A stretch of DNA of 64,000 nt from an uncultured Chloroflexia bacterium. Its GTDB lineage: Bacteria; Chloroflexota; Anaerolineae; Anaerolineales; RBG-16-64-43. Below the pieces are notes generated by a model. It was not told where the DNA came from and ran no database searches. It was given only the letters and a program-made list of their open reading frames with translations. The DNA lies in the NCBI GenBank assembly GCA_963780865.1, contig CAWADT010000016.1:27793-91792 (forward strand), written 5' to 3'. The position numbers and the translations under genes were made by a program. Below, piece by piece: positions 6,170 through 20,665 of this stretch (position 1 is the stretch's first letter; every line of letters begins with the position of its first letter).

Positions 6170-6236
6170 CCGACCATAGACCGTGGACTTTGGACCATGG
6201 ACGATGGATCATTGTCGATGGTCGATGGTCCATGGC
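6169..6236. repeat. Short palindromic repeat cluster (GGACCATGG / ACCATAGACC family)
   Basis: CGACCATAGACCGTGGACTTTGGACCATGGACGATGG...CGATGGTCGATGGTCCATGG. The same motif family forms the pheS-pheT intergenic palindrome at 52294-52437. Confidence 0.6.
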
Positions 6237-6247
6237 CGTTTTTTCCC

Positions 6248-7190
6248 CTACATCATCTCTTCGTACAGACGTTCCAGCGTCAGATCGGGGATCACCGTAT
6301 GCTTGGACCGCAGGGTTAGCGAGGCGGCCGAGATACCAAGCTTCACCGCCTCGTCGATGGGGATGTCGTTGAGCACGGCGAAGAGCACGGTTGCCGTCAA
6401 CGCATCGCCGGCGCCGGTCGGATCGACGATGACGGTGCGCAAACCCGGGACGTGTCCCCGGCCTTCGCGCGTGGCGTAGGCTACGCCGAACTCCTCGAGG
6501 GATATCACCGCGATGCAAACTCCCCGAGCGACCAGTTCCTGCGCCGCCGCCACCGCCGCGGATGGATCATCACTGCGAATGCTACCGCCCGAGCAGGATT
6601 TCCGCTTCCCCGGCGTTGGGAGTGACGAGGAACAGATCGCGCAAATGGGGTGTCAATCGGGAGGCCAAATGCCTGGAGGTTGGATCGGCGCTGATCGGGA
6701 TGCCGGTCTTCCGCGCGAGGCGGATCGCTTCGGCGATGGTTTCCGGCGACAAATTCGCGTCCAGAAACACCATGCCCGCGGTTTGGAACAGGGCTTCCTC
6801 TCTTTTTAGGCATTCCGGCGTCAGGGCTTTCAGCGGCGTCATATCGTCTAGCGCCATGCGCAACCGGCCGCGGGAATCCACTACCGCAAGATACGCGCCG
6901 GTGGTTTGCCCGGCAAGCACTTGCATGTGGGAGACGTCCACTCCGGCTTCCTTTAACAGGTCCATCAGCCCGCGTCCCTGGGGATCGTCGCCCACCGCCG
7001 AGAGCAACGTGCAGGGTTGGCCGAGCCGCCCCAGATTCTCGGCAACGTTGCGGGCTACTCCTCCGAAAGCAAACCGGATGCTGGCCGGCATGGAGGTTCC
7101 CTCCTCCGGGTCGCCGCGCAGTCTGCCAACCATATCCAGCCCGGAGGTGCCAATCACCAGCACCGGCTTTTCAGTGTCCAGCTTTGGCAT
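6248..7190 (-). CDS. PfkB-family carbohydrate/nucleoside kinase, interrupted by an apparent 1-nt frameshift near 6588-6590
   Basis: Two ORFs (6582..7190 and 6248..6553) together make one ribokinase-like protein with N-terminal VIGTSGLDMV...FGGVARNVA and C-terminal DPTGAGDA. Removing one C from CCC 6588-6590 restores ...EAEILLGGSIRSDDPSAAVAAAQELV... Confidence 0.8.
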
Positions 7191-7372
7191 GGCGACGCTC
7201 CTTACACAATCATCCTACACCCCCCAACTCCGGACGGGGAAGCCTCGCACAAAGCTCTATGAATCCGGGTGGGGCGGAAACGATAGCGGCAATTTTATCC
7301 CGTTCCCGAAAAAATGGATTTTTGTAAGGGATCAGTCAATATTGTTAGGGGGTGCGGAAAAAATCGGGTTTT

Positions 7373-7506
7373 GTCATTGCGAGCGACCAAAGGGAGCGAA
7401 GTAATCTCCCAATGACAGACGTAAAAAACTCTCTACCAAGGGAATGGATAATTCTTTTGCCAATCAATAAACCGGATTGCTTCGTCGCTTCGCTCCTCGC
7501 AATGAC
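7373..7506. repeat. Imperfect inverted repeat (GTCATTGCGAGCG...CGCAATGAC element)
   Basis: Left arm GTCATTGCGAGCGACCAAAGGGAGCGAAGTAATC (7373-7406), right arm GATTGCTTCGTCGCTTCGCTCCTCGCAATGAC (7475-7506). It is intergenic. Confidence 0.6.
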
Positions 7507-7531
7507 TGGTTTAGACTTTTTCAGCACCCTG

Positions 7532-9071
7532 TTAGAAATTTTGGCGCGGGCGATACTGCAACGCCTCAGCCAGATGCGCGGGCGTGATATTTTCAGCGGC
7601 CGAGAGATCGCCGATCGTGCGCGCCACTTTCAGCACGCGGTGGAAAGCGCGGGCCGAGAGCTGCAGCTGCTGCATGGCCGCGCGCATCAGCGCGGAGCCG
7701 GCGTCGTCGAGGCGGCAGTAGCGGCGCACGTCGCCGGCGCGCATTTCCGCATTGCACGTGAGGCCGCTCCCGGCGAACCGCTCGCGGGCCCGCGCCCGGG
7801 CGGCTTCCACGCGGGCGCGCACAGCCGATGAGCTTCGCCCGGCTGCGGATCCGCGAGTTTTGCGAACTCCACCCGCGGCACCTCGACGTGAATGTCGATC
7901 CGGTCGAGCATCGGGCCGGAAATGCGCTTTTGATAGCGGGTGACCAGGGCCGGGGCGCAGGTGCAGGCGCGCACGGAATCGCCGGCGTAGCCGCACGGGC
8001 ACGGGTTCATCGCCGCCACCAGCATGAAGTTGGCCGGGAAGGTGAGCGAGCCGTGGGCGCGGGAAATGGTCACCACTTTGTCTTCCAGCGGCTGGCGCAG
8101 CACCTCCAGCACGCGCGTCCCGAATTCCGGGAACTCGTCCAGGAACAGCACGCCGCGATGGGCCAGGCTGATCTCGCCCGGCCGCGGCCAGTTGCCCCCG
8201 CCCGCCAGCCCGGCGTGCGAAATGGTGTGATGCGGCGCGCGGAACGGGCGGCGGCGGATCAGCGGGACATCCGGCGGGAGCTGGTCCGCTACCGAATAGA
8301 CGCGGGTGATATCCAGCGCCTCTTCGAGGGATAGCCGGGGGAGAATGGACGGCAGCGCCCGCGCCAGCAAGCGTCTTCCCCGCGCCCGGCGGGCCGATGA
8401 GCAATACGTTGTGTCCGCCGGCGGCGGCCACTTCCAGCGCGCGCTTGGCGTGTTCCTGCCCGCGGATTTCTTCCAGCGCGGTAAAGATCGTTCGGCCGTT
8501 GTCTTCTCCCGGCGTTTCTTCGTCGCTCAGGCTCAGCGCCTGGGCGGGCGAGAGCGGGCTTTCGCCGGTGAGGTGCCGGACGAGCGCGACGACATGGTCC
8601 ACCGGATACACTTCCAAATCCGGGATCAGCGCCGCCTCGCGCGCATCGCAGGCCGGGACGAACACCCTCTTCAACCCCAGACGCCGCGCGAGCGCCGTCA
8701 TCGGCAGCACGCCGCGCACGTGGCGGACCGAACCGTCCAGCGAAAGTTCGCCGACCATCAAGGTCTGGTCCAACGCCGTCGCCGGGAATTTGGCCGGAAG
8801 CAACCAGCAACCCGACGGCGATCGGAAGATCGTAGGCCGGGCCTTCCTTGCGCAGATCGGCCGGCGCCAGGTTGACGGTAACGCGCCGGTACGGAAACGA
8901 GAGGCCGGCGTTCTTCACCGCGGCCTGAACGCGTTCGCGGCTTTCCTGCACGGCGGTATCCGGCAGGCCGACAATAACAAACGACGGCATGCCGTTGGAT
9001 ACGTCCACTTCCGTTTGGACCACGGCGCCGTCGAGACCGATCACTGCACAGGATGAAACGCGAGCCAGCAT
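7532..9071 (-). pseudogene. comM: YifB/ComM-family Mg-chelatase-like AAA+ ATPase, broken by three frameshifts
   Basis: N-terminal part in ORF 8289..9071 ([15 protein letters not shown]...[16 protein letters not shown]). Middle part in ORF 7532..8803 ([15 protein letters not shown]...[11 protein letters not shown]). ATPase core in ORF 7687..8370 ([11 protein letters not shown]...LFLDEFPEF...). C-terminus again in the frame of 7532..8803 ([13 protein letters not shown]...ITPAHLAEALQYRP). The shifts are near 8774-8780, 8369-8374 and 7833-7836. Confidence 0.85.
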
Positions 9072-9251
9072 AGTCTCCCCCTTGGAGCGAAAGTTCAGCG
9101 GCAGTGTAGTCCGCGCCGGTAGTGCATGTCAAGCCGAACGCAAGCCGATTGTCTTCATTATAAATAAACAACCGTCCCGGACCGCTTGCAGCAAACGCCG
9201 AAGCTCCGGCGCCTTTCCAACGGAAGAAGACTATGCTTAAATGAAGGCGCC

Positions 9252-9677
9252 ATGGTACGCGTCACTTCCGCAATCTCCATCCCCGAAGGGGAACTTGAAT
9301 TCGAATTCCTGCGCGCATCCGGGCCGGGCGGCCAGAACGTGAACAAGGTCGCTACGGCGGTGCAGCTGCGGTTCGATGTTTTCCGCTCCCCGTCGCTGCC
9401 GGAGGACGTCCGCCGGAGGTTAATCCGGCTGGCGGGCAAGCGGATATCGAAAGACGGGATCCTCCTGCTCCAGGGACGGCGCTTCCGCACGCAGGAACAA
9501 AATCGCGCCGATACGGTCGAGCGGCTGCGTGAGCTGATCGCCCGCGCCGCGGTCGCGCCCAAACGGCGGACGCCGACCCGTCCGACCAAAGGCTCCCGGG
9601 AACGCCGTTTGCAAAGCAAGCGCCGCATCGCCGAACGAAAAACCTCGCGCCGCAAAGGGCAACCGGGAGAAGACTAG
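9252..9677 (+). CDS. arfB: Alternative ribosome-rescue factor ArfB (peptidyl-tRNA hydrolase, GGQ domain)
   Basis: ATG at 9252 (MVRVTSAISIPEGELEFEFLRASGPGGQNVNKV...), a GGQ motif and a basic C-terminal tail (KRRTPTRPTKGSRERRLQSKRR). Confidence 0.85.
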   Translation: MVRVTSAISIPEGELEFEFLRASGPGGQNVNKVATAVQLRFDVFRSPSLPEDVRRRLIRLAGKRISKDGILLLQGRRFRTQEQNRADTVERLRELIARAAVAPKRRTPTRPTKGSRERRLQSKRRIAERKTSRRKGQPGED

Positions 9678-9882
9678 CATTTTAGGGACACTCTCCCAAA
9701 CCGGAAATTGAATGCCGCGCATCATGGCACCCTCTCCCGCCGCATGCTGATTGCCCGCGAGGACGGAATAGCAAATATTCTCATTCCTACATAGTCTCCG
9801 GGAAGGTGCGGTTGTTTTCACTTCATTTTCCGCGTGACCGGGTAAGCGCAAAGTCTGAGGGTTGAGGTTTATAATATCCCGC

Positions 9883-10227
9883 ATGTCCGACTATGAAGCG
9901 TTTAACTCTTTTCCGGGCGCCGTTATCCTGTGCACCCCGGATGGAATAATTCAATATATGAACTCTACGGCTGAAGCGGACCTGGCCGAGCATGGAGGCC
10001 GGGCGCTGATCGGATCCAACGTTCTGGATTGCCATCCTGCTCCGGCGCGGGAAAAACTCGAGGCTTTGATGAGGGACCGGCAATCGAACACCTATACGTC
10101 CGAGAAGAATGGGAAGAAGAAGCTTGTCTACCAGTTCCCCCTCTATCGCGACGGCATATATTCCGCCTACGGGGAAATCTCGTTTGAAATCCCCTTTGTG
10201 ATCCCCAATTTTATCCGGACCAATTAG
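9883..10227 (+). CDS. Small PAS-domain protein
   Basis: MSDYEAFNSFPGAVILCTPDGIIQYMNSTAEADL...VLDCHP is a PAS-fold pattern. TATAAT at 9870-9875 lies only 7 nt before the ATG. An alternative TTG start exists at 9862. Confidence 0.65.
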   Translation: MSDYEAFNSFPGAVILCTPDGIIQYMNSTAEADLAEHGGRALIGSNVLDCHPAPAREKLEALMRDRQSNTYTSEKNGKKKLVYQFPLYRDGIYSAYGEISFEIPFVIPNFIRTN

Positions 10228-10327
10228 CCCCTTTCCATTGGATTTGCGCGGATTTCCCTGCGCCATCGCAATCCCAAGCAACCAAACCCTCTGCAATCCA
10301 GGGCGGCATCGCTTCCGGGGAAGAACC

Positions 10328-10472
10328 AATGAATGACCGCGCGGTAAGCCGCGCAGTATCCATGGGCGCAACCCCCAAGAACTGCGCAGCAAGCCCCGCA
10401 CTCTTCGATTAATATAGAGGAGTGCGGGGCAAATTGCGGGGTATTCATCATCCCGCGAGAGTGGGATAAATT
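10328..10472 (+). repeat. Hairpin-string repeat element, copy 1 (upstream flank of the rSAM cassette)
   Basis: AATGAATGACCGCGCGGTAAGCCGCGCAGTATC...GGTATTCATCATCCCGCGAGAGTGGGATAAATT. It is about 85-90% identical by eye to 16188-16372, in the same orientation. Confidence 0.75.
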
Positions 10473-10575
10473 GAATCCTTCGGAACCTGCCGCACGTATA
10501 TAGAAAGGAGGGAGCGGGACGGTTGCCTCCTCCCTTCCCTCGTGCTACACTTTGCCCAACGAGAGGTTGCCATGA

Positions 10576-10938
10576 ATGCTTTGCGAAGTCATCGGTTACA
10601 TTGCCGCCGCCATCCTGATCTTCTTCGGGGTGCTGTTTATCTGGGCCGCCTTCGGGGCGCAATCGCATCCCGAATATATTTGCGTCGGCGTGATCAGCGC
10701 GGCCATCGGATTCGGCCTGATCTTGCTCGCCTCGTGGAAACCGGGCGCCCCCAAACCAGCCGACAACGTCACGCTGAACATCGATCTGCCCGCCAACGTG
10801 AACCTGGATTCGCTGAAATGCAAATCCTGCGGCGGGGCGCTGACGACCGACAACATCAAGATGGTCGCCGGAGCGCCGGTGGTCACCTGCCCATACTGCC
10901 ATACCACCTACCAACTGACCGAAGAACCCAAGTGGTGA
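10576..10938 (+). CDS. Small membrane protein (2 TM) with C-terminal zinc ribbon
   Basis: 120-aa ORF with two hydrophobic helices, then KCKSCGG...TCPYCH (CxxC-x19-CxxC). It is the first gene of the cassette. Confidence 0.75.
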   Translation: MLCEVIGYIAAAILIFFGVLFIWAAFGAQSHPEYICVGVISAAIGFGLILLASWKPGAPKPADNVTLNIDLPANVNLDSLKCKSCGGALTTDNIKMVAGAPVVTCPYCHTTYQLTEEPKW

Positions 10939-10996
10939 CGGACCGACCGGTCGACCCCCGGCCTCCGAACCCGGAATCCGCACCGGAGCGCAGCGT

Positions 10997-12694
10997 ATGA
11001 AAAACAAATTCCTCTTCTCCGCCGTCCTACTGTTTGTGCTGCTGGCATTTCCGATCCGCGCCGCGGCCGCGTCCTATTCGTTCGCCCTCCCTCAGGAAGA
11101 CGTACAAGCGTATTGGAACGCCGACGGAACCCTTTCGATCGACTACACGTTCGCGTTTCAAAACGATCCCGGCGCGAGCCCGATCGACTACGTGGACGTG
11201 GGCATTCCCAATTCCAATTACGATATCTCCAAGGTCACCGCCGACGTCGACGGCTGGCCGATCACCGACATTCAAACCTCGCAGTACGTCTCGGTCGGGG
11301 TCGCGCTTGGATTGGGAGCCCGGGCTATCCCGCCCGGCACCTTAGGCACCGTCCACGCCCACATCGACCGGGTGAGCAGGGTCCTTTATCCGGACAGCAG
11401 CGATTCCAAATATGCCAGCGCGGATTTCTCCCCCACCTGGTTCGATTCCTCCCTTGTGCACGGATCGACGAACCTGAGCGTGACCTTCCATCTGCCCCCG
11501 GGAGTCGGACCCAACGACCCGCGCTATCATAGCAATCCGCAAAATTGGCCCAACGCGAATGCGCCCGCCACGGCGCTGGACAGCAATGGATTAGTGACCT
11601 ATACCTGGCAAAGCGCCGACGCCAATGGGTCTACCCAATACACCTTCGGCGCCTCCTTCCCGGCGAGCGTCGTGCCGGCATCCGCGATCGTCACTCAAAC
11701 CATCTTCGATCAACTCTCCGCGGTTTTGGCGCCGATCCTGGCGGCCGCCGCCCCCTGCCTGTGCGTGTTGGGTTTCTTCTTTTTCATCATTCTCCTGGGC
11801 GTGCTCGGCGCCTGGCAACAGAACCAGCGCAAGAAGGCTTACCTTCCGCCGACGATCGCGATCGAGGGGCACGGCATCAAACGCGGCCTGACCGCCGTCG
11901 AAGCGGCGCTGCTGGCGGAACAACCGCTGGACAGGGTGATGACGATGATCCTCTTCGGCCTGGTGAAGAAAAACGCGGCGACCGTCACCTCCAGCGATCC
12001 GCTCCAACTGAAGATTTCCGATCCCCTGCCTGCGGGGCTCTATCCGTACGAGACGGATTTCCTGGCCGCCTTCAAACCGAATGCCGCGGGTGTTCCAGCC
12101 TCGAACCAACTCGCCCTCCAGCGCAAAGGTTTGCAGGATATGACCATCAACATGCTCAAAAGCCTGCAGGAAAAGATGAAGGGGTTCTCCCGCAAGGAGA
12201 CGCTGGATTATTACAAGACGATCACCGAAAATGCCTGGCAACAGGTGGCCGCGGCGGGAACGCCGGAAGTGAAAGCCCAGGCCCTGGACGACAACCTCGA
12301 ATGGACGATGACCGACCGCGACTTCGAAACCCGCTCGCAGACCGTCTTCGGCGGCGGACCGGTGTTCGTCCCGATTTGGTGGGGGCGCTACAACCCGACC
12401 TTCGGCGGCGGAACGGCCGCGCCGATGCCGTCCCTCGGCGGGCACGGCGGCGCGATCTCGCTGCCGCATCTGCCCGGCGCGGACTTTGCCGGTTCGATCG
12501 TCGGCGGAGTGCAATCGTTCTCGAAAAACGTGATCGGCGATCTGACCGGATTTACCAGCAACATTACAAACAAAACCAATCCCATCCCGGTCGCCACTTC
12601 CTCCGGCGGCGGATGGCACGGCGGCGGTGGCGGCTGCGCTTGCGCGTGCGCGTGCGCCGGTTGCGCCTGCGCCTGCGCGGGAGGCGGACGGTAG
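10997..12694 (+). CDS. DUF2207-like single-pass membrane protein with C-terminal Gly5-(Cys-Ala)n-GGGR tail
   Basis: Signal peptide (MKNKFLFSAVLLFVLLAFPIRAAAA). The N-terminal ectodomain pattern (YSFALPQEDVQAYWNADGTLSIDYTFAF) resembles DUF2207. Central TM is APCLCVLGFFFFIILLGVLGAW. A segment of the ~290-aa C-terminal part (GLTAVEAALLAEQPLDRVMTMILFGLVKK) is reminiscent of the TIGR04222 domain. The protein ends GGGWHGGGGGCACACACAGCACACAGGGR*. Confidence 0.85.
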   Translation: MKNKFLFSAVLLFVLLAFPIRAAAASYSFALPQEDVQAYWNADGTLSIDYTFAFQNDPGASPIDYVDVGIPNSNYDISKVTADVDGWPITDIQTSQYVSVGVALGLGARAIPPGTLGTVHAHIDRVSRVLYPDSSDSKYASADFSPTWFDSSLVHGSTNLSVTFHLPPGVGPNDPRYHSNPQNWPNANAPATALDSNGLVTYTWQSADANGSTQYTFGASFPASVVPASAIVTQTIFDQLSAVLAPILAAAAPCLCVLGFFFFIILLGVLGAWQQNQRKKAYLPPTIAIEGHGIKRGLTAVEAALLAEQPLDRVMTMILFGLVKKNAATVTSSDPLQLKISDPLPAGLYPYETDFLAAFKPNAAGVPASNQLALQRKGLQDMTINMLKSLQEKMKGFSRKETLDYYKTITENAWQQVAAAGTPEVKAQALDDNLEWTMTDRDFETRSQTVFGGGPVFVPIWWGRYNPTFGGGTAAPMPSLGGHGGAISLPHLPGADFAGSIVGGVQSFSKNVIGDLTGFTSNITNKTNPIPVATSSGGGWHGGGGGCACACACAGCACACAGGGR

Positions 12695-12698
12695 CGCC

Positions 12699-14016
12699 AT
12701 GCTCCGCGAGCGTTTCTTCCGCGCCCGGATCAAACCGCCCGCCCCGGGGTTGTATCATTTCCGCCGCGAGGCCGGCGGCGGATTCTCGCGCGTCCACCTG
12801 CGGGTGGACCCGGACGGCCACGGAACACTGGTGGTCGACGCCGCGCGGATCCTGCACCTCAATCCCACCGCGGCACAAATGGCCTACCTGGCCTTGGAAG
12901 GAATCCCGTCCGACGCAGCCGCCCGCTCGATCGCCGGCGAATACCGAGATTCGCGGGCGCAGGCCCGAGGCGGATTTCCTCGGCATCGCGGCCCAGGTGG
13001 ATGCGCTCACCCGCCCCGACGGGCCCTGCCCGGTTTGCGACCTCGAATTGGACATCCGCGCGCCCTTCAGCCACACCCCCTCGGCGCCGTACCGAATGGA
13101 CCTGGCGCTTACCTATCGCTGCCAGAACGATTGCGCCCACTGCTATAACGCGCGGCCGCGATCGTTCCCCGAGCAGCCCGCCGCGGTCTGGAAACGGATG
13201 ATCGACCGCTTATGGGATCTCGGCATCCCGCACATCGTGTTTACCGGCGGCGAACCGACCCTGCGGGGCGACCTGCCCGAGCTGGTAGCCTACGCCGAAC
13301 GAAAAGGGCAGATCACCGGCCTCAACACGAACGGACGCCGGTTGCAAGACCGGACGTTCCTGCAATCCCTGGTGGACGCGGGTCTGGACCACGTGCAGAT
13401 CACGCTCGAGAGCCACGAGGAAGCCCTCCACGATTCGATCGTCGGCGCGCACGGCGCCTGGCGGCAGACGGTGGACGGGGTGCGCAACGCGCTTGACACC
13501 CGCCTCTACGTGATGACCAACACCACGCTTTTGCGAAGCAACACCCCTGCGCTTGAGGAAACTCTCGAATTTCTGGCCGCTACCGGCGTGCCGACCGTGG
13601 GGCTGAACGCGCTGATTTATTCGGGCCGGGGCGCGACGGTGGGCACCGGGCTTTCCGAAGGGGAATTGCATCCGCTGCTCGAGCTCGCGCGGGAGAAGAC
13701 CGCCCGAAACAAACAAAAGCTCATCTGGTATACGCCGACGGAATATTGCCACTTCGATCCGGTCCAGCAGGAATTGGGAGTGAAGGGCTGCACCGCGGCG
13801 ATGTACAACATGTGCGTCGAACCCGACGGCGGCGTAATCCCGTGCCAATCCTATTACCAACCGCTGGGCAACCTGCTCGCGGAGGAATGGAACAGCATTT
13901 GGAACAGCGACCTGGCGGTTTCGCTTCGCGAGCGCCGGCACGCCGCGGAGAAGTGCCGGGAGTGCGCGCTCTTCGCGGAATGCGGCGGGGGATGCCCGCT
14001 GGCTCCGCGCGGCTGA
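12699..14016 (+). CDS. Radical SAM/SPASM enzyme with N-terminal PqqD/RRE-like domain (apparent 1-nt frameshift at 12964-12966)
   Basis: The ATG at 12699 is 4 nt after the preceding stop. N-terminus is MLRERFF...LHLNPTAAQMAYLALEGIPSDAAARSIAGEYR, in the frame of ORF 12627..13148. The rest is in the frame of ORF 11545..14016. CX3CX2C (CQNDCAHC) is at 13120-13143, GGEPTL follows, and the SPASM signature CX2CX5CX3C (CRECALFAECGGGC) is at 13954-13995. Removing one C of CCC 12964-12966 joins the frames. Confidence 0.85.
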
Positions 14017-14091
14017 CCGCCCGCCTTTCTAACAAAGAATTTTCGGTTTGCCGCAGAATAGGAAATCGTAGACCATTGCAGGGAGGTAGGC

Positions 14092-15246
14092 ATGGCAGCC
14101 TTGATTAAATCCTTACGCGATCGATTGCAACCCGTCGCCGCGCTTCCGGCCGGGGTGCATCACTATCAATCCAAACCCTCTTCGCCCTCGCCCTTCCGCC
14201 TTCATCTGCGGCTGGAAACCGACGGCAGCGGCATTCTGATCGTGAACGCGTCAACCATCCTCCATCTAAACCAGACGGCCGCCGAGTACGCCTACCAATG
14301 GGTGAAGGATTTCCCGCCCGACGATGCCGCCAAAGCAATCGCCGCGCGGTACCGCGTCAGCCGCAAGCAGGCCCGGCAGGATTACCAGGATTTCATCCAA
14401 AGGGTGGAGACTATGCTTAATACACCGGACCTGGATCCGGTGATGTATCTGGATTTCGCCCGCGAGGAACCCTACTCCAAGGAACTCTCGGCGCCCTACC
14501 GGCTGGATTGCGCGCTCACCTACCGATTGCCCGAGGGGGAAAACGTTCATTATGCCCCGATCGAACGGGTCAAGAGCGAACTTTCCACCGAGGAATGGAA
14601 GACCATCCTCTCCAAGGCCTGGGAGGCCGGGATCCCGCACGCGGTCTTCACCGGCGGGGAACCAACACTGCGCGAGGATCTGCCCGCGCTTGTGGCGCAC
14701 ACGCAAGCCATCGGGCAGGTCTGCGGTTTGCTCAGCGGCAGCCTGCGCCTCGCTTCGGCCGACTACCTCAAGACCATCCTCGACAGCGGGCTGGACCACC
14801 TGATGTTCCTCTTGCAGCCGGACCGGGAGGAATCCTGGACGGCGCTCGGCAACGCCATGGCCTCCGATCTGTCCACCACCGCCCACCTTACCCTCAACCG
14901 CGCCCTGGCCCCGCGCGCCGGATCGATCCTCGAGCGGCTCGCCAAGCTGGATGTGCGCTGGCTCTCCCTGAGCGCGTCAGACCCCGAAGGCGCGCAAGCC
15001 CTGACGGTCCTGCGCAACCGGGCGGCCGAGCTCGGGCTTTCGCTGCAATGGGACCTGCCCGTTCCGTACTCCCCGGCCAATCCCATTTCGCAGGAGATCG
15101 GCACGCCTTCGGCGGGAGCGGGCAAGGCCTGGCTGTACGTCGAACCCGACGGCGATGTCCTCCCCGAGCAGGGAGTCAACCGGGTGCTGGGCAACTTCCT
15201 GCGCGATCCCTGGGCTCAGATCTGGGCCGCCGCCCGGTCGAAGTGA
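14092..15246 (+). CDS. Cysteine-less paralog of the radical SAM enzyme (pseudo-rSAM) retaining the PqqD/RRE-like N-terminus
   Basis: The 384-aa ORF aligns along its length with the preceding gene (ILHLNQTAAEYAYQWVKDFPPDDAAKAIAARYRVSRKQARQDY; FTGGEPTLREDLPALVA). The CX3CX2C position reads ALTYRLPEGENVHY, and the SPASM cysteines are absent. Only 2 Cys occur in the whole protein. Confidence 0.8.
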   Translation: MAALIKSLRDRLQPVAALPAGVHHYQSKPSSPSPFRLHLRLETDGSGILIVNASTILHLNQTAAEYAYQWVKDFPPDDAAKAIAARYRVSRKQARQDYQDFIQRVETMLNTPDLDPVMYLDFAREEPYSKELSAPYRLDCALTYRLPEGENVHYAPIERVKSELSTEEWKTILSKAWEAGIPHAVFTGGEPTLREDLPALVAHTQAIGQVCGLLSGSLRLASADYLKTILDSGLDHLMFLLQPDREESWTALGNAMASDLSTTAHLTLNRALAPRAGSILERLAKLDVRWLSLSASDPEGAQALTVLRNRAAELGLSLQWDLPVPYSPANPISQEIGTPSAGAGKAWLYVEPDGDVLPEQGVNRVLGNFLRDPWAQIWAAARSK

Positions 15247-15393
15247 ATTAGCGTTCGGCCGGCCGCGTGATGCCGCGGAGCAATCTCCGGGTTCGCGCGC
15301 CGCAAGCGGCAGGGTATTCTTCATCCCGCAAGAACCGAAAAAGCTCCGGCCGCAACCGCAGGACTCAGCTTGTGCCCCGATAAAAATCCATCC

Positions 15394-16158
15394 ATGCCCC
15401 TCTCGATCGAAGAATGGCACAATCGATTTTGCCAACAAGCCCGCTGGACCGAATCCCTGCGGGCGCATTTTTTTTCACGGATGGATTTGGGCCGCCTCGA
15501 TCGAATTCTCGAGGTGGGCTGCGGGACGGGCGCGCTAAGCGCTGCCCTCGCCCGGGACCACCCGGCGGCGAAGGTGAGCGGAGTGGATCTGGATATTCGG
15601 CGGCTGGAGTTCGCCCGGTCGCACGATCCCGCGTGCGCGTATGCCGCCGGCGACGCCCGACGGCTTCCCTTTCCCGCCCGCGCGTTCGACGCGGTTCTTT
15701 GCCATTTCCTGCTGCTGTGGATTCCATCGCCCGCGGCGGCCGTGCGCGAAATGGCGCGGGTGGTGCGCCCGGGAGGCTGGGTGATCGCGCTGGCCGAGCC
15801 GGATCATACCGCTCGGATCGATTTTCCCCTGCCGCTGGAGAGGCTGGGCGGATTGCAAACCGACGCGCTCCGCCGGCAGGGAGCCGACCCCACACTAGGC
15901 CGCCGACTGGCGGAATTATTCGCCAATTCCGGATTGAGCGTCGAGGAAACAGGCATCCTGGGAGCACAGGTTATTCCCGCGGAACCGAGCGGCGGGGATT
16001 CTGAGCTTGAATGGAGGATCCTAAAGGAGGATATCGGCCCCCGGGTTTCGGAATCCGAATGGGAGACTTTCCGCAAAGCCAATTCCGTTTCGCGTGAGCG
16101 CGGTGCACGCGTGTTGTTTGTTCCCACTTTTTATTGTTTTGGCCGGCGAAGGGATTAG
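15394..16158 (+). CDS. Class I SAM-dependent methyltransferase
   Basis: Motif I is ILEVGCGTGALS, followed by a post-I acidic residue (GVDLD) and RVVRPGGWV. The ORF track start is 15370 (TTG). I prefer the ATG at 15394. Confidence 0.8.
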   Translation: MPLSIEEWHNRFCQQARWTESLRAHFFSRMDLGRLDRILEVGCGTGALSAALARDHPAAKVSGVDLDIRRLEFARSHDPACAYAAGDARRLPFPARAFDAVLCHFLLLWIPSPAAAVREMARVVRPGGWVIALAEPDHTARIDFPLPLERLGGLQTDALRRQGADPTLGRRLAELFANSGLSVEETGILGAQVIPAEPSGGDSELEWRILKEDIGPRVSESEWETFRKANSVSRERGARVLFVPTFYCFGRRRD

Positions 16159-16187
16159 GCTCAGGCCGAGTCTTCCATCCGGGGAAA

Positions 16188-16372
16188 AATGAATGACCGC
16201 GCGGCAAGCCGCGCGGTATCGAGGCACGCAACCCCCAAGAACTGCGGGGCAAGCCCCGCATTCTTCAAGTAATAAAGAGGAGTGCGGGGCAAGCCCCGCA
16301 TTCTTCAAGTAATAAAGAGGAGTGCGGGGCAAGCTGCAGGGTATTCATCATCCCGCGAAAGCGGGATAAATT
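16188..16372 (+). repeat. Hairpin-string repeat element, copy 2 (downstream flank of the cassette), with an internal 40-bp tandem duplication
   Basis: AATGAATGACCGCGCGGCAAGCCGCGCGGTATC...(GCGGGGCAAGCCCCGCATTCTTCAAGTAATAAAGAGGAGT)x2...GGTATTCATCATCCCGCGAAAGCGGGATAAATT. It is built from GC-rich stems with 4-nt loops (CAAG/GAAA). Confidence 0.8.
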
Positions 16373-16496
16373 ACCAACGTCAAAGGCAGTGGCTATGGAT
16401 GGCAGCGCTTGGAAGAAGCGCTCCTTCCGATTCTAGGTGTGAAAAACACCCTCGTTGCAGGTTGGTCCGCCTTCTCCTACCTTTTGGCTTCCTCCC

Positions 16497-16672
16497 GGAT
16501 GGATTCCATCCCATCCAACCCCTCCCATCCTTTGGGTTGATATTCACTGTGCTGAAAATCCCTCCCCTTCCTTCCCGTGATATGGCCTGTCCTCGAGCGC
16601 CTGCCCTGAGCGAAGCGAAGGGAAGCGAGGGGAGAAGGAAGGGGAGGAGAAGGCGGGGAAGAATGGGGTGGT
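16497..16672. repeat. CCCTTCC-type palindromic (MITE-like) element
   Basis: Outer arms are CCATCCCATCCAACCCCTCC ... GGCGGGGAAGAATGGGGTGG. Inner perfect 14-nt arms are CCTCCCCTTCCTTC (16561-16574) and GAAGGAAGGGGAGG (16634-16647). Family members are listed in the findings. Confidence 0.7.
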
Positions 16673-16785
16673 TCCTGACGGGTAGCAAGCGCAACCTATT
16701 CAATGGCATAGCTTCGAAATTACGCCCATGACAGAACTTTTTCCATCTATTCACTACCCAAGGCGGTGGCTTTGCCCCTAAAAAT

Positions 16786-16833
16786 AAAAACAGCCGCGAC
16801 CGCCGGATTTTCTCCAGTGCCGCGGCTGTTTTT
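16786..16833 (-). terminator. Rho-independent terminator of the SIMPL gene
   Basis: Stem CAGCCGCG (16791-16798) pairs with CGCGGCTG (16821-16828). A T-run follows on the minus strand. Confidence 0.55.
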
Positions 16834-16844
16834 GGATCGATTAA

Positions 16845-17624
16845 TTAGTCTCCGATTTCGAAGATCACGCTGAGAGAATACGAGACCTGCCAGGTTCCCA
16901 CCTGGATGGGCACCGAGGAGCCGCCTCCCCCGCCCATTCCGGCCGCGTTGTAACCCTTGTCCACCACTGGAAATGGAACGGATGCGCCGTATTCATTGAT
17001 GGACATCACCCGGACGATTTTCACGCCCAGACCTTTGGCGATTTCATTCGCCCGGGCGATGGCATCGGCTACGGCCAGCGCGCGCGCCTGCGAGACGGCC
17101 TGGGTGGGATCGTTTAGCGAGAAGCTCACCCCACCGACCGAATTCACACCCGCCGCCTGGGCGGCGCCGAGAATGTCGCCCACCTTGGTTAAATCCCGCG
17201 CGGTGACTGTCAGCGAGTGGGTTACGAAGTAATCCGTTTCCCCGGTCGGTTTGCCGCTGACTGGATCGTATTTATCCTGTTGAGTAACAGTGAAATCGCT
17301 CTGGATATCCTCCGCCTTAACCCCCAGCCCTTCGATTGCGGCGACCGCCGCGGTGGCCTTGGCGTTGTTATCGTCCCAGGATTTCGAGATGCTCGGGTCC
17401 TGAGTGATTACGCTCAGGTAAATCGTGGCGATGTCCGGCGCCACTTTGACTATGCCCTCCCCGTTGACCGAAAGCGTGCGGAGGTTCGATTGCGTGGGCA
17501 CGACACAATTCACATTACACGGCGTGCTGGGCAAGGCAGTCGCCGCGGCGGTTCCGGAGCAGCCGGCCAGCAGCAAAAACATCACACTGGCCGCGGCTCC
17601 TAAAATGATCGATTTTCGGTTCAT
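16845..17624 (-). CDS. SIMPL/DUF541-domain lipoprotein
   Basis: Lipobox LLLAGC. LSVNGEGIVKVAPDIATIYLSV...ARALAVADAIARANEIAKGLG is the SIMPL (26-kDa periplasmic immunogenic protein-like) pattern. Confidence 0.8.
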   Translation of the reverse strand: MNRKSIILGAAASVMFLLLAGCSGTAAATALPSTPCNVNCVVPTQSNLRTLSVNGEGIVKVAPDIATIYLSVITQDPSISKSWDDNNAKATAAVAAIEGLGVKAEDIQSDFTVTQQDKYDPVSGKPTGETDYFVTHSLTVTARDLTKVGDILGAAQAAGVNSVGGVSFSLNDPTQAVSQARALAVADAIARANEIAKGLGVKIVRVMSINEYGASVPFPVVDKGYNAAGMGGGGGSSVPIQVGTWQVSYSLSVIFEIGD

Positions 17625-17798
17625 GGTTCCTCCTCATGGATTCCCGGCGGGCCCCATTCTCCACCGGTTCGATTACAGTGTATCAGACGACACCCAAAGG
17701 CAAATGGTTCCCATCTCCATCGCCAAGATCGGCTGTTCTCGTATATTTCAGCCGCGAGACAGATAACCAGAATCTGCAGTCCTTATGCCGTGATTCGC

Positions 17799-17906
17799 AA
17801 TTCTTGCAGCCGGAATCGACAATTCCTTTCGCCGGGTTCCCGATTCTTGTAGCCGGGATCGACGATTCCTTTCGCCGGGTTCCCGATTCTTGTAGCCGGG
17901 ATCGAC
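17799..17906. repeat. 43-bp tandem repeat (~2.5 copies) carrying the TGTAGCCGGGATCGA motif
   Basis: Units start at about 17799, 17842 and 17885 (GATTCTTGTAGCCGGGATCGACGATTCCTTTCGCCGGGTTCCC). The last unit pairs with the first unit of the adjacent 21-bp array to form the palindrome TGTAGCCGGGATCG/ACGATCCCGGCTACA. Confidence 0.8.
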
Positions 17907-18049
17907 GATCCCGGCTACAGCCACGACGATCCCAGCTACAGCCACGACGATCCCGGCTACAGCCACGACGATCCCGGCTACAGCCACGACGATCCCAGCT
18001 ACAGCCACGACGATCCCGGCTACAGCCACGTCGATCCCGGCTACAGATT
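17907..18049. repeat. 21-bp perfect-period tandem array (6 full + 1 partial copies)
   Basis: GATCCCGGCTACAGCCACGAC repeats at 17907, 17928, 17949, 17970, 17991, 18012 and 18033, with G/A variation at one position. There are no spacers. Confidence 0.9.
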
Positions 18050-18150
18050 AATCGAGTATTAAAGAACCTCCCGGATAAGAATGCCATTAATCTTTCGCGC
18101 TAATCTCCGGCCATCCCGGCTCGGGAAGCCGGCGGGCCTTTTCGCGCGCC

Positions 18151-18179
18151 TTGCACCTTGGAGGGCGCTCGTCTACAAT
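18151..18179 (+). promoter_or_regulatory. Putative sigma-70 promoter of pnp
   Basis: TTGCAC (18151-18156), a 17-nt spacer, then TACAAT (18174-18179). This would give a ~235-nt leader before the pnp ATG. Confidence 0.4.
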
Positions 18180-18421
18180 AGAACGAGGCGGGATAAACCG
18201 CCTCCGAAATCTCTCGGAGACAATACACCCCCGAAGGGTTGGAGTTCGTCCGAAAGGCATCACGCGGGTTAAAAAACCGCTCCCCGGCGGGAAAACCCCC
18301 TGAGGGATTTCGAAAATCTTAGCCCAGCGGCAAACGGATTGGGAATTGGAAGGCGCGCGTTGGATTTCATCCGGCGCCCGGCTTCCAGTCCCTAACCCCT
18401 GCCGCCATTCTTGGAGGAGTT

Positions 18422-20665
18422 ATGGACAAGCATAAAACGTTTCAAGCGGTGGTGGAAGGGAAAACATTCCTCCTTACCACCGGTGGGCTCGCCGCGCAGG
18501 CGGGCGGAGCCGTTACGGTGAGGGTCGGTGAATCGCTGATCTTCGCCGCCGCCACCATGAGCCGGGAGCCGCGGCTGGGGATCGATTTCTTCCCGCTTTC
18601 GGTGGAATACGAGGAACGAATGTACGCCGGCGGCATCATCCCGGGTTCGTTCTTCCGCAGGGAAGGGCGTCCGTCGGAAACCGCAATCCTGGTCGCGCGC
18701 CTGACGGACCGGCCGCTGCGCCCGCTGTTCCCTAAGGACATGCGCAACGACGTCCAGGTCATCATGTATGCCTTCTCGTCCGACGCCGAGAATCCGCTCG
18801 ACGTCCTGGCGATCAACGCCGCCTCGGCCGCGTTGTCGGTCTCGGATATCCCGTGGGGCGGCCCGATCGGCGCTGTCCGGGTGGGGAGGATCGAGGGACG
18901 CTGGGTGTTCAACCCGACCTACGAAGAAATCAAACATTCGGAACTCGACCTGCGCGTGGCCGCTTCCCGCGAAGCGATCCTGATGGTCGAAGCAGGTGCG
19001 AGTGAATTGCCGGAGCACTTGATGGTGGAAGCCCTCAAGGAGGCGCATCGCGCCATCCAGCCGCTGATCGACGCCCAGGAAAAGATGGCCGCCGAGGCGG
19101 GCAAGCCCAAGCGCGATTATGTCCACTACGCGCTCACCGATAAGGTGCGCGAAGCGGTCTCCAAGAGAGTTGGCACGCGCCTGGCCGAGGCGTTTCGCGA
19201 CGAGCTCGATAAAACCGAGCGGCAGGCGGTGCTGGACGCGATCGAAGGCGAGGTGCTGGCGGGATTCGAAAACGACGCCGACATGGCCGAAGCCGACCTG
19301 CGCGAGGCGTTCTACGATCTGTACCACACCGAAGTCCGCTCGCACATCCTGAATTCCAACCAACGCACCGACGGGCGTGATCCGAAACAGATCCGACCGC
19401 TTTCGGCCGAGGTTGACTTCAGCCCGCGCGCGCACGGATCCGGGCTCTTCGCCCGCGGCGAAACCCAGGTGCTTTCCTTCACCACGCTCGGCACTCCGCG
19501 CGACGCGCAGGAACTCGACGGGCTGGCTCCGATTGACGAAAAGCGCTACCTTCACCACTACAACTTCCCGCCGTTCAGCACAGGCGAAGTGAAGATGCTG
19601 CGCGGGTCCTCGCGCCGCGAAATCGGGCACGGCGCGCTCGCCGAACGCGCGCTGATTCCGGTCCTGCCCCCGCAGGAGGAATTCCCCTATACCATCCGGG
19701 TGGTCTCGGAGGTGCTGTCTTCCAACGGCTCCTCCTCGATGGCGTCGGTGTGCGGCTCCACTCTGGCGCTGATGGACGCCGGCGTGCCGTTAAGAGCGCC
19801 GGTGGCGGGGATCGCGATGGGGCTGGTGAAGGAAGGCGAGAAGTACGTCATCCTCACCGACATCCAAGGCGTGGAAGATCACCACGGCGACATGGACTTC
19901 AAGGTGGCCGGCACGTCCCACGGCATCACCGCGCTGCAGATGGACATCAAAATCAAAGGTGTGACGCCGCAGATCATGGAAGAAGCGCTGGCCCAGGCCC
20001 GCGAAGCGAGGCTCCAGGTGCTGGAAGTGATCCGCGCCTGCATCCCCGCCCCGCGGCCGGACCTCAAGGCGCATGCGCCGCGAATCACGATCCTGAAAAT
20101 CGACCCGGAGAAAATCGGGGCGGTGATCGGCCCGGGCGGCAAAGTCATCCGCAAGATTCAGGAAGACACCGGGGTCAAGATCGACATCGAAGACGACGGC
20201 CGGGTGTACATCGCGGCGGTCGACGGACCGAGCGCGGCGGAAGCCCGCCGGCGCGTCGAGAGCCTCACCGAAACCCCGGTAGTGGGACGCATCTATACCG
20301 GTAAAGTGGTACGGGTTGCGGACTTCGGAGCGTTCGTCGAGATCCTCCCCAACATCGACGGGCTGGTGCACATCTCCCAACTAGATTCCACCCGCGTAGA
20401 AAAAGTGGAAGACGTGGCCAACCTGGGCGATGAATTGACCGTGATGGTGACGGGCATCGATCCGGAAGGCAAAGTGCGGCTGTCTCGCACCGCGGTGCTG
20501 GAAGGTTGGACCGTCGAGGAAGCCGCCGAGCACGACCGGAAGCCGTCCGGCGGGGGCCGCAGCGGGGGCAGTCGCAGCGGACCAAGCTCGCATCGCCCTT
20601 CCGACAGCCGCGGGCATGACCGCGGCGGCGAACACCGGGAACCCTCCGGCCCGCGCAAGCGATAA
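18422..20665 (+). CDS. pnp: Polyribonucleotide nucleotidyltransferase (PNPase)
   Basis: 747 aa with GGAGGAG before the ATG, two RNase PH-like domains, KH (ITILKIDPEKIGAVIGPGGKVIRKI) and S1 (GRIYTGKVVRVADFGAFVEI) domains, and a basic Gly/Ser/Arg tail. Confidence 0.97.
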   Translation: MDKHKTFQAVVEGKTFLLTTGGLAAQAGGAVTVRVGESLIFAAATMSREPRLGIDFFPLSVEYEERMYAGGIIPGSFFRREGRPSETAILVARLTDRPLRPLFPKDMRNDVQVIMYAFSSDAENPLDVLAINAASAALSVSDIPWGGPIGAVRVGRIEGRWVFNPTYEEIKHSELDLRVAASREAILMVEAGASELPEHLMVEALKEAHRAIQPLIDAQEKMAAEAGKPKRDYVHYALTDKVREAVSKRVGTRLAEAFRDELDKTERQAVLDAIEGEVLAGFENDADMAEADLREAFYDLYHTEVRSHILNSNQRTDGRDPKQIRPLSAEVDFSPRAHGSGLFARGETQVLSFTTLGTPRDAQELDGLAPIDEKRYLHHYNFPPFSTGEVKMLRGSSRREIGHGALAERALIPVLPPQEEFPYTIRVVSEVLSSNGSSSMASVCGSTLALMDAGVPLRAPVAGIAMGLVKEGEKYVILTDIQGVEDHHGDMDFKVAGTSHGITALQMDIKIKGVTPQIMEEALAQAREARLQVLEVIRACIPAPRPDLKAHAPRITILKIDPEKIGAVIGPGGKVIRKIQEDTGVKIDIEDDGRVYIAAVDGPSAAEARRRVESLTETPVVGRIYTGKVVRVADFGAFVEILPNIDGLVHISQLDSTRVEKVEDVANLGDELTVMVTGIDPEGKVRLSRTAVLEGWTVEEAAEHDRKPSGGGRSGGSRSGPSSHRPSDSRGHDRGGEHREPSGPRKR

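Follow-up and report, generated by a model that had tools for sequence, protein, structure and literature searches.

A Conserved Cysteine-Alanine Tail on a Chloroflexota Membrane Protein: A Probable Substrate of the Radical SAM/SPASM Enzyme Encoded Beside It

Introduction

Why should a large integral membrane protein end in seven cysteines that alternate with alanine? This question is raised by a 565-aa open reading frame (ORF) in a 64,000-nucleotide stretch of DNA from an uncultured Chloroflexia bacterium (GenBank assembly GCA_963780865.1, contig CAWADT010000016.1, positions 27,793 to 91,792), which is referred to below as the window. As read in the window, the C-terminus of the encoded protein is ...SSGGGWHGGGGG-CACACACAGCACACA-GGGR, followed by a TAG stop codon. 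The neighboring gene encodes a radical S-adenosylmethionine (SAM) enzyme with a SPASM domain, which we call rSAM1. A preliminary description of this DNA weighed two readings of the tail: a selected, regularly spaced Cys array and low-complexity sequence drifting in a GC-rich genome. Our comparisons strongly support the first and refute the second. An enzyme-substrate relation between rSAM1 and the tail is likely from the gene associations described here. The complete explanation that we favor, with somewhat less confidence, is that the tail is a protein-borne substrate of rSAM1, comparable to the precursor of a peptide made on ribosomes and then modified post-translationally (RiPP), with a radical SAM paralog (rSAM2) as its recognition partner and a methyltransferase as a tailoring enzyme.

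Conservation of the Tail

The gene and the segments of its tail are as follows.

10997 to 12694, + strand: tail-bearing membrane protein, 565 aa (translation, homologs, AlphaFold2 model)
12590 to 12634 (aa 532-546), + strand: Gly/Ser/His-rich flexible linker, variable in length and sequence (homolog alignment)
12635 to 12679, + strand: core (Cys-Ala)4-Gly-(Cys-Ala)3 with seven Cys (translation, repeat search, homologs, codon usage, shuffles)
12680 to 12694, + strand: invariant GGGR C-terminus and stop (exact-motif ORFs; all Arg codons and stops used)

On re-reading, the codon run given in the preliminary description is matched exactly: positions 12635-12679 code for C-A-C-A-C-A-C-A-G-C-A-C-A-C-A, which is seven Cys alternating with Ala and one Gly, GGGR occupies 12680-12691, and TAG follows at 12692-12694. 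The preceding GGGWHGGGGG is also present; it spans 12605-12634, so that the start at 12608 given earlier is one codon late. The DNA of the tail is an imperfect hexanucleotide repeat. In Tandem Repeats Finder it appears as 7.7 copies of a period-6 unit over 12630-12678; matches amount to 78%, and the score of 43 falls short of the default threshold of 50. The window contains a single match to the degenerate back-translated tail pattern, and 100 dinucleotide-preserving shuffles contain none.

The strongest evidence that the tail is not a chance product is its conservation. When the whole protein was used in a homology search, more than 4,127 clusters were matched, and all of them are unnamed or "hypothetical"; they come from metagenome-assembled genomes (MAGs) of Anaerolineales and other Chloroflexota. 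Tails were compared in the best 120 of these more than 4,127 matches, which are 40-100% identical to the window protein overall. The C-terminal end is exactly CACACACAGCACACAGGGR in 114 of the 120. The deviating tails comprise three with one extra Cys-Ala unit, one with one unit fewer, and two with a single substitution in the GGGR end. An alignment of 63 sequences gives 100% majority identity for the tail, as compared to 47-75% for other regions of the protein, making the tail its most conserved region.

This constancy does not extend to the nucleotides. The 128 genomic copies of the tail have 126 different DNA spellings; Cys is encoded by TGC and TGT in about equal measure, and every one of the four Ala, four Gly, and six Arg codons and of the three stops occurs. 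Mean pairwise nucleotide identity is 80%, and every difference is synonymous. These data indicate that the synonymous sites of the tail are saturated with the amino acids unchanged, and that purifying selection targets the tail peptide and not its DNA. Saturated synonymous change without amino acid change refutes, for close relatives, both drifting low complexity and a slippage-variable microsatellite. The suggestion that copy number might vary by slippage is not supported among these relatives, where just 4 of 120 tails differ by one Cys-Ala unit. The number of units does differ between deep subfamilies, and it is fixed within each lineage. The hallmarks of contingency-type microsatellites, which are a number and sequence that vary among close relatives and conservation at the DNA level, are absent from these 120 tails.

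An exact-pattern scan for CACACACAGCACACAGGG, using one genome per GTDB species, found at least 120 loci. The matches listed are mostly from Anaerolineae, among them the cultured Ornatilinea apprima P3M-1 and Leptolinea sp. HRD-7, whose genome is complete. Others lie on MAG contigs labeled Acidobacteriota, Aminicenantes, Sabulitectum/Hyd24-12, Planctomycetota, Zixibacteria, Coatesbacteria, Edwardsbacteria, and Clostridia, and further listed matches carry the MAG labels of one deltaproteobacterium and two Promethearchaeota. The phylum labels beyond Chloroflexota derive from MAG binning. Archaeal marker genes were sought in the flanks of the two Promethearchaeota-labeled contigs; only a sirtuin, transporters, and Nramp were found, which is not decisive, so the archaeal assignment is that of the MAG binning alone. 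Arg and then a stop follow the motif in 121 of 121 scan ORFs, although the search pattern specified neither.

More distant members show which features of the tail are held constant. The family numbers more than 4,000 clusters at 90% identity in its long form and more than 3,400 in a short form described below; clustering at 50% gives 870 clusters at E ≤ 1e-3. Tails of distant clusters have Cys-Ala blocks of 4+3, 3+4, 3+3, 2+4, or 3+3+3 units, or a single block of five. The residue at the break is Gly, Ser, Asn, or Asp, and the residue between cysteines is Ala or Val only, with the C-x-C register and the GGGR end kept. The preservation of the register, together with the restriction to Ala or Val in such divergent tails, argues that the residues between cysteines are more than spacers.

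Many genomes carry two tandem tail-protein paralogs (L001 at 6216-10331, L078, L130, L133, L135, L142, L145, and others). The paralogs have identical tails, differ elsewhere, and share one radical SAM gene set; those of L001 are 554 and 776 aa long, the larger having approximately 200 extra N-terminal residues. A tail-less ortholog was also sought as a test of whether the radical SAM gene is lost with the tail. The protein encountered, P0255 (L245, 5650-6654), is an uninformative extra paralog. It is N-terminally truncated and lacks the ectodomain, and an acidic Gly/Asp/His-rich tail (GHDSGYDGGHGSGYDGG...) replaces the Cys-Ala tail. The gene directly downstream encodes a homolog with a normal N-terminus; the contig end removes the C-terminus of this homolog.

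Linkage to a Radical SAM/SPASM Gene

The tail gene is the second gene of a five-gene cassette, the other members of which are listed here.

10576 to 10938, + strand: small membrane protein, 120 aa, with two transmembrane (TM) helices and a C-terminal CxxC...CxxC zinc ribbon ending in YQLxEEPKW (first cassette gene)
12699 to 14016, + strand: rSAM1, radical SAM/SPASM enzyme with a putative PqqD-like N-terminal domain (Pfam, NCBIfam, homologs)
14092 to 15246, + strand: rSAM2, pseudo-radical-SAM paralog with a PqqD domain, lacking CX3CX2C and the SPASM cysteines (Pfam, homologs)
15370 to 16158, + strand: class I SAM-dependent methyltransferase, last cassette gene (Pfam, synteny)

The order small zinc-ribbon protein, tail protein, rSAM1, rSAM2, methyltransferase recurs in the fetched loci. 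Adjacency was counted where the sequence extends 1.5 kb or more past the tail gene, which is the case for 104 loci. A radical SAM homolog lies downstream in 97 of these, usually within tens of bases; in the window, the ATG of rSAM1 (12699) is 5 nt past the tail-gene stop.

Two further classes of locus retain this pairing in different surroundings. The 3+4 tail variant, found at 120 or more loci in metagenome contigs, occurs in a permuted cassette: small protein, radical SAM, second radical SAM paralog, one or two tail proteins, and methyltransferase. These are the same five gene families as in the 4+3 cassette, and the second paralog lacks the radical SAM motif with its SPASM cysteines kept. 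A radical SAM gene adjoins the 3+4 tail gene in 35 of 35 loci with adequate flanks. The short class, with more than 3,400 clusters, several of them from human-gut metagenomes, consists of proteins of 300-390 aa (typically about 320). Members examined (L132, L174, L213, L224, and L246-L248) have a membrane anchor, an ectodomain, a TM helix, and, approximately 25 residues on, ...CACACAGCACACACAGGGR-AGCSxKDFY.... The motif is internal here, and the AGCSxKDFY that follows it is conserved, with a further Cys. The N-terminal region and ectodomain are homologous to those of the window protein (hhalign, 98.5%), and the cytoplasmic domain, methyltransferase, zinc-ribbon protein, and pseudo-radical-SAM paralog are all missing. 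What remains is a two-gene module, in housekeeping neighborhoods, with a radical SAM/SPASM gene of 450-475 aa in either order; the two genes are adjacent in three of three short-class loci tested. From these arrangements, the pairing of tail and radical SAM gene survives both permutation of gene order and loss of all other components.

The tail is always borne by a membrane protein of 300-780 aa. A search for a stand-alone small ORF encoding it gave none, every short ORF being a contig edge or a frameshift, and across 240 loci the cassette has no conserved protease or exporter. Unrelated genes do intervene between cassette genes at some loci: a CDP-alcohol phosphatidyltransferase, two lipid A-type acyltransferases, and PAP2 in L001 (11764-14793), an M28 peptidase in L003 (11127-12613), and a PAS/HD-GYP protein in L004 (9699-11810). 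In L001 and L004, the upstream genes include PhoU and phosphate or polyphosphate genes.

In rSAM1, Pfam identifies Radical_SAM (E = 1.7e-24) and SPASM (E = 7e-10). The cluster motif CQNDCAHC (CX3CX2C) is kept in 90 of 90 high-scoring full-length homologs and the SPASM motif CX2CX5CX3C (CRECALFAECGGGC) in 87 of the same 90. The nearest solved relatives are PqqE, followed by SkfB and SuiB, all of which are peptide-modifying radical SAM enzymes. The best NCBIfam matches (NirJ2, PqqE, AhbC/D, GeoRSP, and MftC) each score three- to five-fold under the family cut-off.

The paralog rSAM2 is different. Neither CX3CX2C nor the SPASM Cys motif is kept in any of 63 homologs, and because both motifs are missing throughout, these sequences mark rSAM2 as a conserved pseudo-enzyme. 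Its PqqD domain scores 23.4 bits (E = 7.7e-5), exactly at the Pfam gathering score, and it is probably a noncatalytic substrate-binding partner. The methyltransferase is a generic Methyltransf_11/25 protein whose best solved match is LahSB, over the SAM-binding core only. The Cys residues and PKW of the zinc-ribbon protein are invariant in 117 homologs, and its gene is upstream of the tail gene at most loci. PADLOC returned generic superfamily matches only (viperin-like radical SAM, methyltransferase) and no defense signal.

In the window, rSAM1 is split over two frames by a 1-nt frameshift at about 12964-12966. If one C is dropped from a CCC run, the gene reads as one 438-aa ORF that is colinear with its closest homolog, from locus L064. 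The frameshift is probably a sequencing or assembly error, since other window genes also look split. One of these, a ComM/YifB-like Mg-chelatase-family gene on the minus strand (7532-9071), appears as three overlapping ORFs in different frames, which suggests more indel errors.

Architecture of the Tail Protein

An AlphaFold2 model was built from the 63-sequence alignment (mean predicted local distance difference test score, pLDDT, 77.7). Its parts, with the candidate recognition segment identified by conservation, are listed below.

aa 1-24: signal peptide or N-terminal signal helix (sequence and AlphaFold2)
aa 28-225: extracytoplasmic beta-sandwich (AlphaFold2, pLDDT >93)
aa 236-280: single long TM helix (AlphaFold2)
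aa 300-464: cytoplasmic winged-helix-like and helical domain (AlphaFold2)
12479 to 12589 (aa 495-531), + strand: leader-like segment, consensus FSxxVIGxLTxFTSxVTxKTNPxP (conservation)

Beyond aa 464, the model consists of a disordered stretch, two or three moderate-confidence helices at aa 495-527, and a disordered tail at aa 533-565. The tail is thus predicted to be disordered and, as such, accessible. The AxA-type signal peptide, the single TM helix, and the basic QQNQRKKAY that follows it, read by the positive-inside rule, place the tail in the cytoplasm, the compartment in which radical SAM enzymes act. The ectodomain resembles the N-terminal beta-sandwich of ribophorin I and of M1-aminopeptidase. 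Pfam and NCBIfam searches at E ≤ 10, with the whole protein and with its halves, yielded no usable match (MerT, E = 0.15; ZirU, E = 0.09). A PDB profile search returned one match, to a telomere-binding protein (E = 0.0012), which was judged spurious.

Residues 495-531 have a mean column identity of 75%, as compared to 57% in the flanking linkers, with G514, F519, T527, P529, and P531 invariant. Their distance from the core is that expected of a RiPP leader recognition sequence. This segment is therefore a candidate recognition sequence for domains of the RiPP recognition element (RRE) type.

Proposed Mechanism

These observations can be combined into a working scheme. The C-terminal ~70 residues would resemble in behavior a RiPP precursor that has been joined to a full-size protein, with a recognition segment (aa 495-531), a linker, and the core CACACACAGCACACA-GGGR, tethered to the inner face of the membrane and lying in the cytoplasm. 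rSAM1 would bind the tail by way of PqqD/RRE-type domains, assisted in Anaerolineae by the catalytically dead, PqqD-bearing rSAM2, and would then act on the Cys/Ala array by radical chemistry. Several Cys-S-to-carbon thioether cross-links of the sactionine or ranthionine type might be made onto neighboring Ala (Val in variants) or onto Gly or Arg. Such cross-linking could stiffen the floppy tail to a rigid, sulfur-rich module still attached to the protein, to which the methyltransferase, where present, would add a methyl group. The role of the product is plausibly that of a redox- or metal-responsive or structural module joining the extracytoplasmic beta-sandwich to the cytoplasm. Thioether formation is favored because enzymes of this class commonly form Cys thioethers, the neighboring residues are only Ala or Val, and no other reactive side chains are available; as to the chemistry, it is our leading guess, held tentatively and at less than even odds.

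Several observations weigh against modification of the tail. The evidence for it is genomic association throughout, and regularly spaced CxC motifs also bind metals without being modified. Seven of the 104 loci have no adjacent radical SAM gene and carry unrelated genes downstream instead. The PqqD domain of frame-corrected rSAM1 scores 16.6 bits (E = 0.01), under the Pfam cut-off, and no PqqD domain was found in the short-class radical SAM enzyme. The short class also lacks a leader-like segment, so recognition must differ there. Because rSAM1 falls in no curated maturase family, its chemistry cannot be transferred by homology. Finally, if the frameshift in rSAM1 is real, the system would be inactive in this genome.

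The main rival explanation takes up the metal-binding potential of the tail. An unmodified tail might bind Cu(I), Zn, Cd, or an Fe-S cluster through its seven thiolates, in the manner of metallothionein and CopY, and the radical SAM gene would be linked to it for another reason, such as receipt or donation of a cluster or action on a different substrate such as a lipid. CxC is the classic thiolate metal-binding pattern, and the 4+3 Cys count recalls cluster ligand sets; the C-terminal CxCxxxxCxC motif of CopY is reported to bind Cu(I) and Zn(II) (PMC12648655). Metal tails, however, normally accept many residues between their cysteines, whereas only Ala or Val occurs here and the GGGR end is invariant, and the variation in Cys number among subfamilies (3+3, 2+4, 5, 3+3+3) is unlike a fixed cluster geometry. 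A lipid substrate would fit a weak match of the radical SAM core to the lipid-modifying GDGT-MAS and the lipid-synthesis genes between the two radical SAM genes of L001, but the full-length similarity of rSAM1 is to PqqE and SkfB, not to lipid enzymes. The putative PqqD/RRE peptide-binding domains of the radical SAM partners, and a linkage to the tail that outlasts loss of every other component, also count against this explanation, which we consider unlikely.

Another possibility starts from modification but ends in release. Once modified, the tail might be cleaved, for instance behind the Gly run, to give a small Cys-rich peptide or a redox cofactor resembling pyrroloquinoline quinone (PQQ) or mycofactocin; the 540-residue membrane protein would then be only a giant leader or scaffold. 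The best curated matches of rSAM1 include PqqE and the mycofactocin maturase, the Gly-rich stretch before the core resembles a double-glycine leader, an M28 peptidase is encoded between the two radical SAM genes of L003, and an extremely invariant short core is typical of cofactor precursors. We nevertheless regard release as improbable, and more so than unmodified metal binding, given that no protease or exporter is conserved across the 240 loci, no stand-alone small tail ORF exists among the sequences searched, the other domains of the large protein are themselves well conserved, and the short-class motif is internal, with conserved AGCSxKDFY after it.

The idea of a functionless low-complexity sequence or hypervariable hexanucleotide microsatellite, for which a period-6 repeat in a GC-rich genome and a few homologs one Cys-Ala unit longer or shorter could be cited, is almost certainly wrong, because the amino acids are identical on contigs labeled as different phyla with synonymous change saturated, and the tail is conserved more than any other region of the protein.

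Relation to Known Systems

A radical SAM substrate borne on a membrane protein invites comparison with characterized maturases. Neither Pfam, NCBIfam, PADLOC, nor the sequences in the PDB contain an entry that covers the tail protein, and a full-text literature search found no description of the motif or the system; one paper on Anaerolineae MAGs reports generic "RRE-containing" clusters, without detail. The nearest conceptual precedents are the thioether-forming radical SAM/SPASM RiPP systems, PQQ and mycofactocin biosynthesis, and the HXS system. The logic is known; what is new is the type of substrate, its extreme conservation, and its breadth.

RRE-dependent radical SAM/SPASM maturases in general share with this system the CX3CX2C core, the SPASM Cys motif, and an adjacent substrate gene (here in 97/104, 35/35, and 3/3 loci of the three classes). 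In sactipeptides (subtilosin/AlbA, SkfA/SkfB) and ranthipeptides/SCIFF, as here, a radical SAM/SPASM enzyme is encoded beside a Cys-rich substrate, and the precursors have the same layout of recognition segment, linker, and core; a PqqD-type recognition domain, putative in the present system, would be a further likeness. The substrate in the window, however, is the tail of a 565-aa integral membrane protein rather than a short exported peptide. Its core is strictly Cys-Ala, without bulky or polar acceptors, no protease or transporter is conserved, and the context is one of housekeeping genes. rSAM1 scores well below the curated cut-offs for StsB (67 vs 625 bits), AlbA (62 vs 850), and SkfB (56 vs 300).

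Likeness to the PQQ (PqqA/PqqD/PqqE) and mycofactocin (MftA/MftB/MftC) systems lies in the short invariant C-terminal core and, putatively, in a PqqD-type chaperone. PqqE is the best solved relative of rSAM1 and is among the best NCBIfam matches of both rSAM1 and the pseudo-radical-SAM paralog; rSAM1 nevertheless falls below the cut-offs for PqqE (112 vs 381 bits) and MftC (95 vs 265). Those cores undergo Glu/Tyr or Val/Tyr chemistry and not Cys chemistry, whereas the tail has neither Glu nor Tyr and lacks the precursor motifs (E-x3-Y and C-terminal GVY). The chaperone role, moreover, apparently falls here to a dead radical SAM paralog, and the substrate is not a free peptide.

The HXS system, in which the radical SAM pair HxsB/HxsC and a small accessory protein mature the full-length repeat protein HxsA, an N-terminally processed periplasmic antiphage effector (PMC13128918), is a precedent for maturation of a full-length, repeat-bearing protein by a radical SAM pair as we propose for the tail. 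It differs in that its repeats are HxS rather than Cys-Ala, and rSAM1 does not reach the HxsC cut-off (71 vs 268 bits). ACGX peptides contain an Ala-Cys-Gly-Xaa tandem repeat, and their system (TIGR04340) is another uncharacterized radical SAM/SPASM family named for a short Cys tandem repeat. The homolog from a Promethearchaeota-labeled locus scores 92 bits against its cut-off of 400, and the family is absent from the top 25 matches of the window enzyme.

Two comparisons concern the tail protein itself. DUF2207 (PF09972) proteins follow the same plan, with an extracytoplasmic N-terminal beta-sandwich, one or more TM helices, and a Gly-rich C-terminal end. PF09972 has no match in the window protein at E ≤ 10 and a weak one in the short class (E ~ 0.2), one member of which carries a precomputed PF09972 annotation. 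This annotation, together with the 98.5% hhalign match between the long and short classes, suggests remote relatedness to DUF2207, although a Cys-Ala tail and radical SAM linkage are apparently not part of the DUF2207 description. Metal-binding CxC tails such as those of metallothioneins and CopY share close thiolate pairs in a short flexible segment, but they tolerate varied intervening residues and have no dedicated enzyme, whereas here Ala/Val is fixed and a radical SAM gene is locked to the tail.

If this assignment is correct, RiPP-type maturation by radical SAM enzymes would, beyond small secreted peptides, take in the tail of an integral membrane protein. As a substrate, strict alternation of Cys and Ala is unusual and could reveal new radical thioether or other sulfur chemistry. 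A concrete function open to testing would also be given to membrane proteins now called "hypothetical," a very large family that includes those of Ornatilinea apprima, Leptolinea sp. HRD-7, and human-gut metagenomes. The absolute conservation of 19 residues over contigs labeled as different phyla implies a precise, important structure, and the minimal module, with its two genes, is simple enough to be reconstituted in a heterologous host. Whether the pair is an ancient two-component system of anaerobic bacteria (Chloroflexota, Acidobacteriota, gut Clostridia, and others), perhaps also of Asgard archaea, that builds a novel protein-tethered prosthetic group at the cytoplasmic membrane face is a more speculative proposal, which we hold to be possible though doubtful. 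Such a group could be a poly-thioether "ladder," or a sulfur-rich cofactor or metallocluster site, built from alternating Cys and Ala; both the post-translational modification and the functional class of membrane protein would then be new.

Other Features of the Locus

The cassette is exactly bracketed by a pair of direct repeats, 86-89% identical.

10328 to 10472, + strand: upstream copy of a 145-185-nt repeat with hairpins and a GNRA-loop stem (repeat comparison)
16188 to 16372, + strand: downstream copy with an extra internal 40-nt unit (repeat comparison)

The hairpins are GC-rich, and the GNRA stem reads CCCGC-GAGA-GTGGG in one copy and CCCGC-GAAA-GCGGG in the other, a U-to-C change that keeps the pair. 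The window has these two copies only, the other fetched loci have none, and an Rfam search over 9000-19000 gave no match at the gathering threshold. The repeat could be a regulatory RNA, a terminator element, or a trace of cassette mobility. Farther downstream, intergenic tandem arrays (43 nt x 2.6, then 21 nt x 6.9 with 95% matches) occupy 17800-18046, upstream of a polynucleotide phosphorylase gene at 18422-20665.

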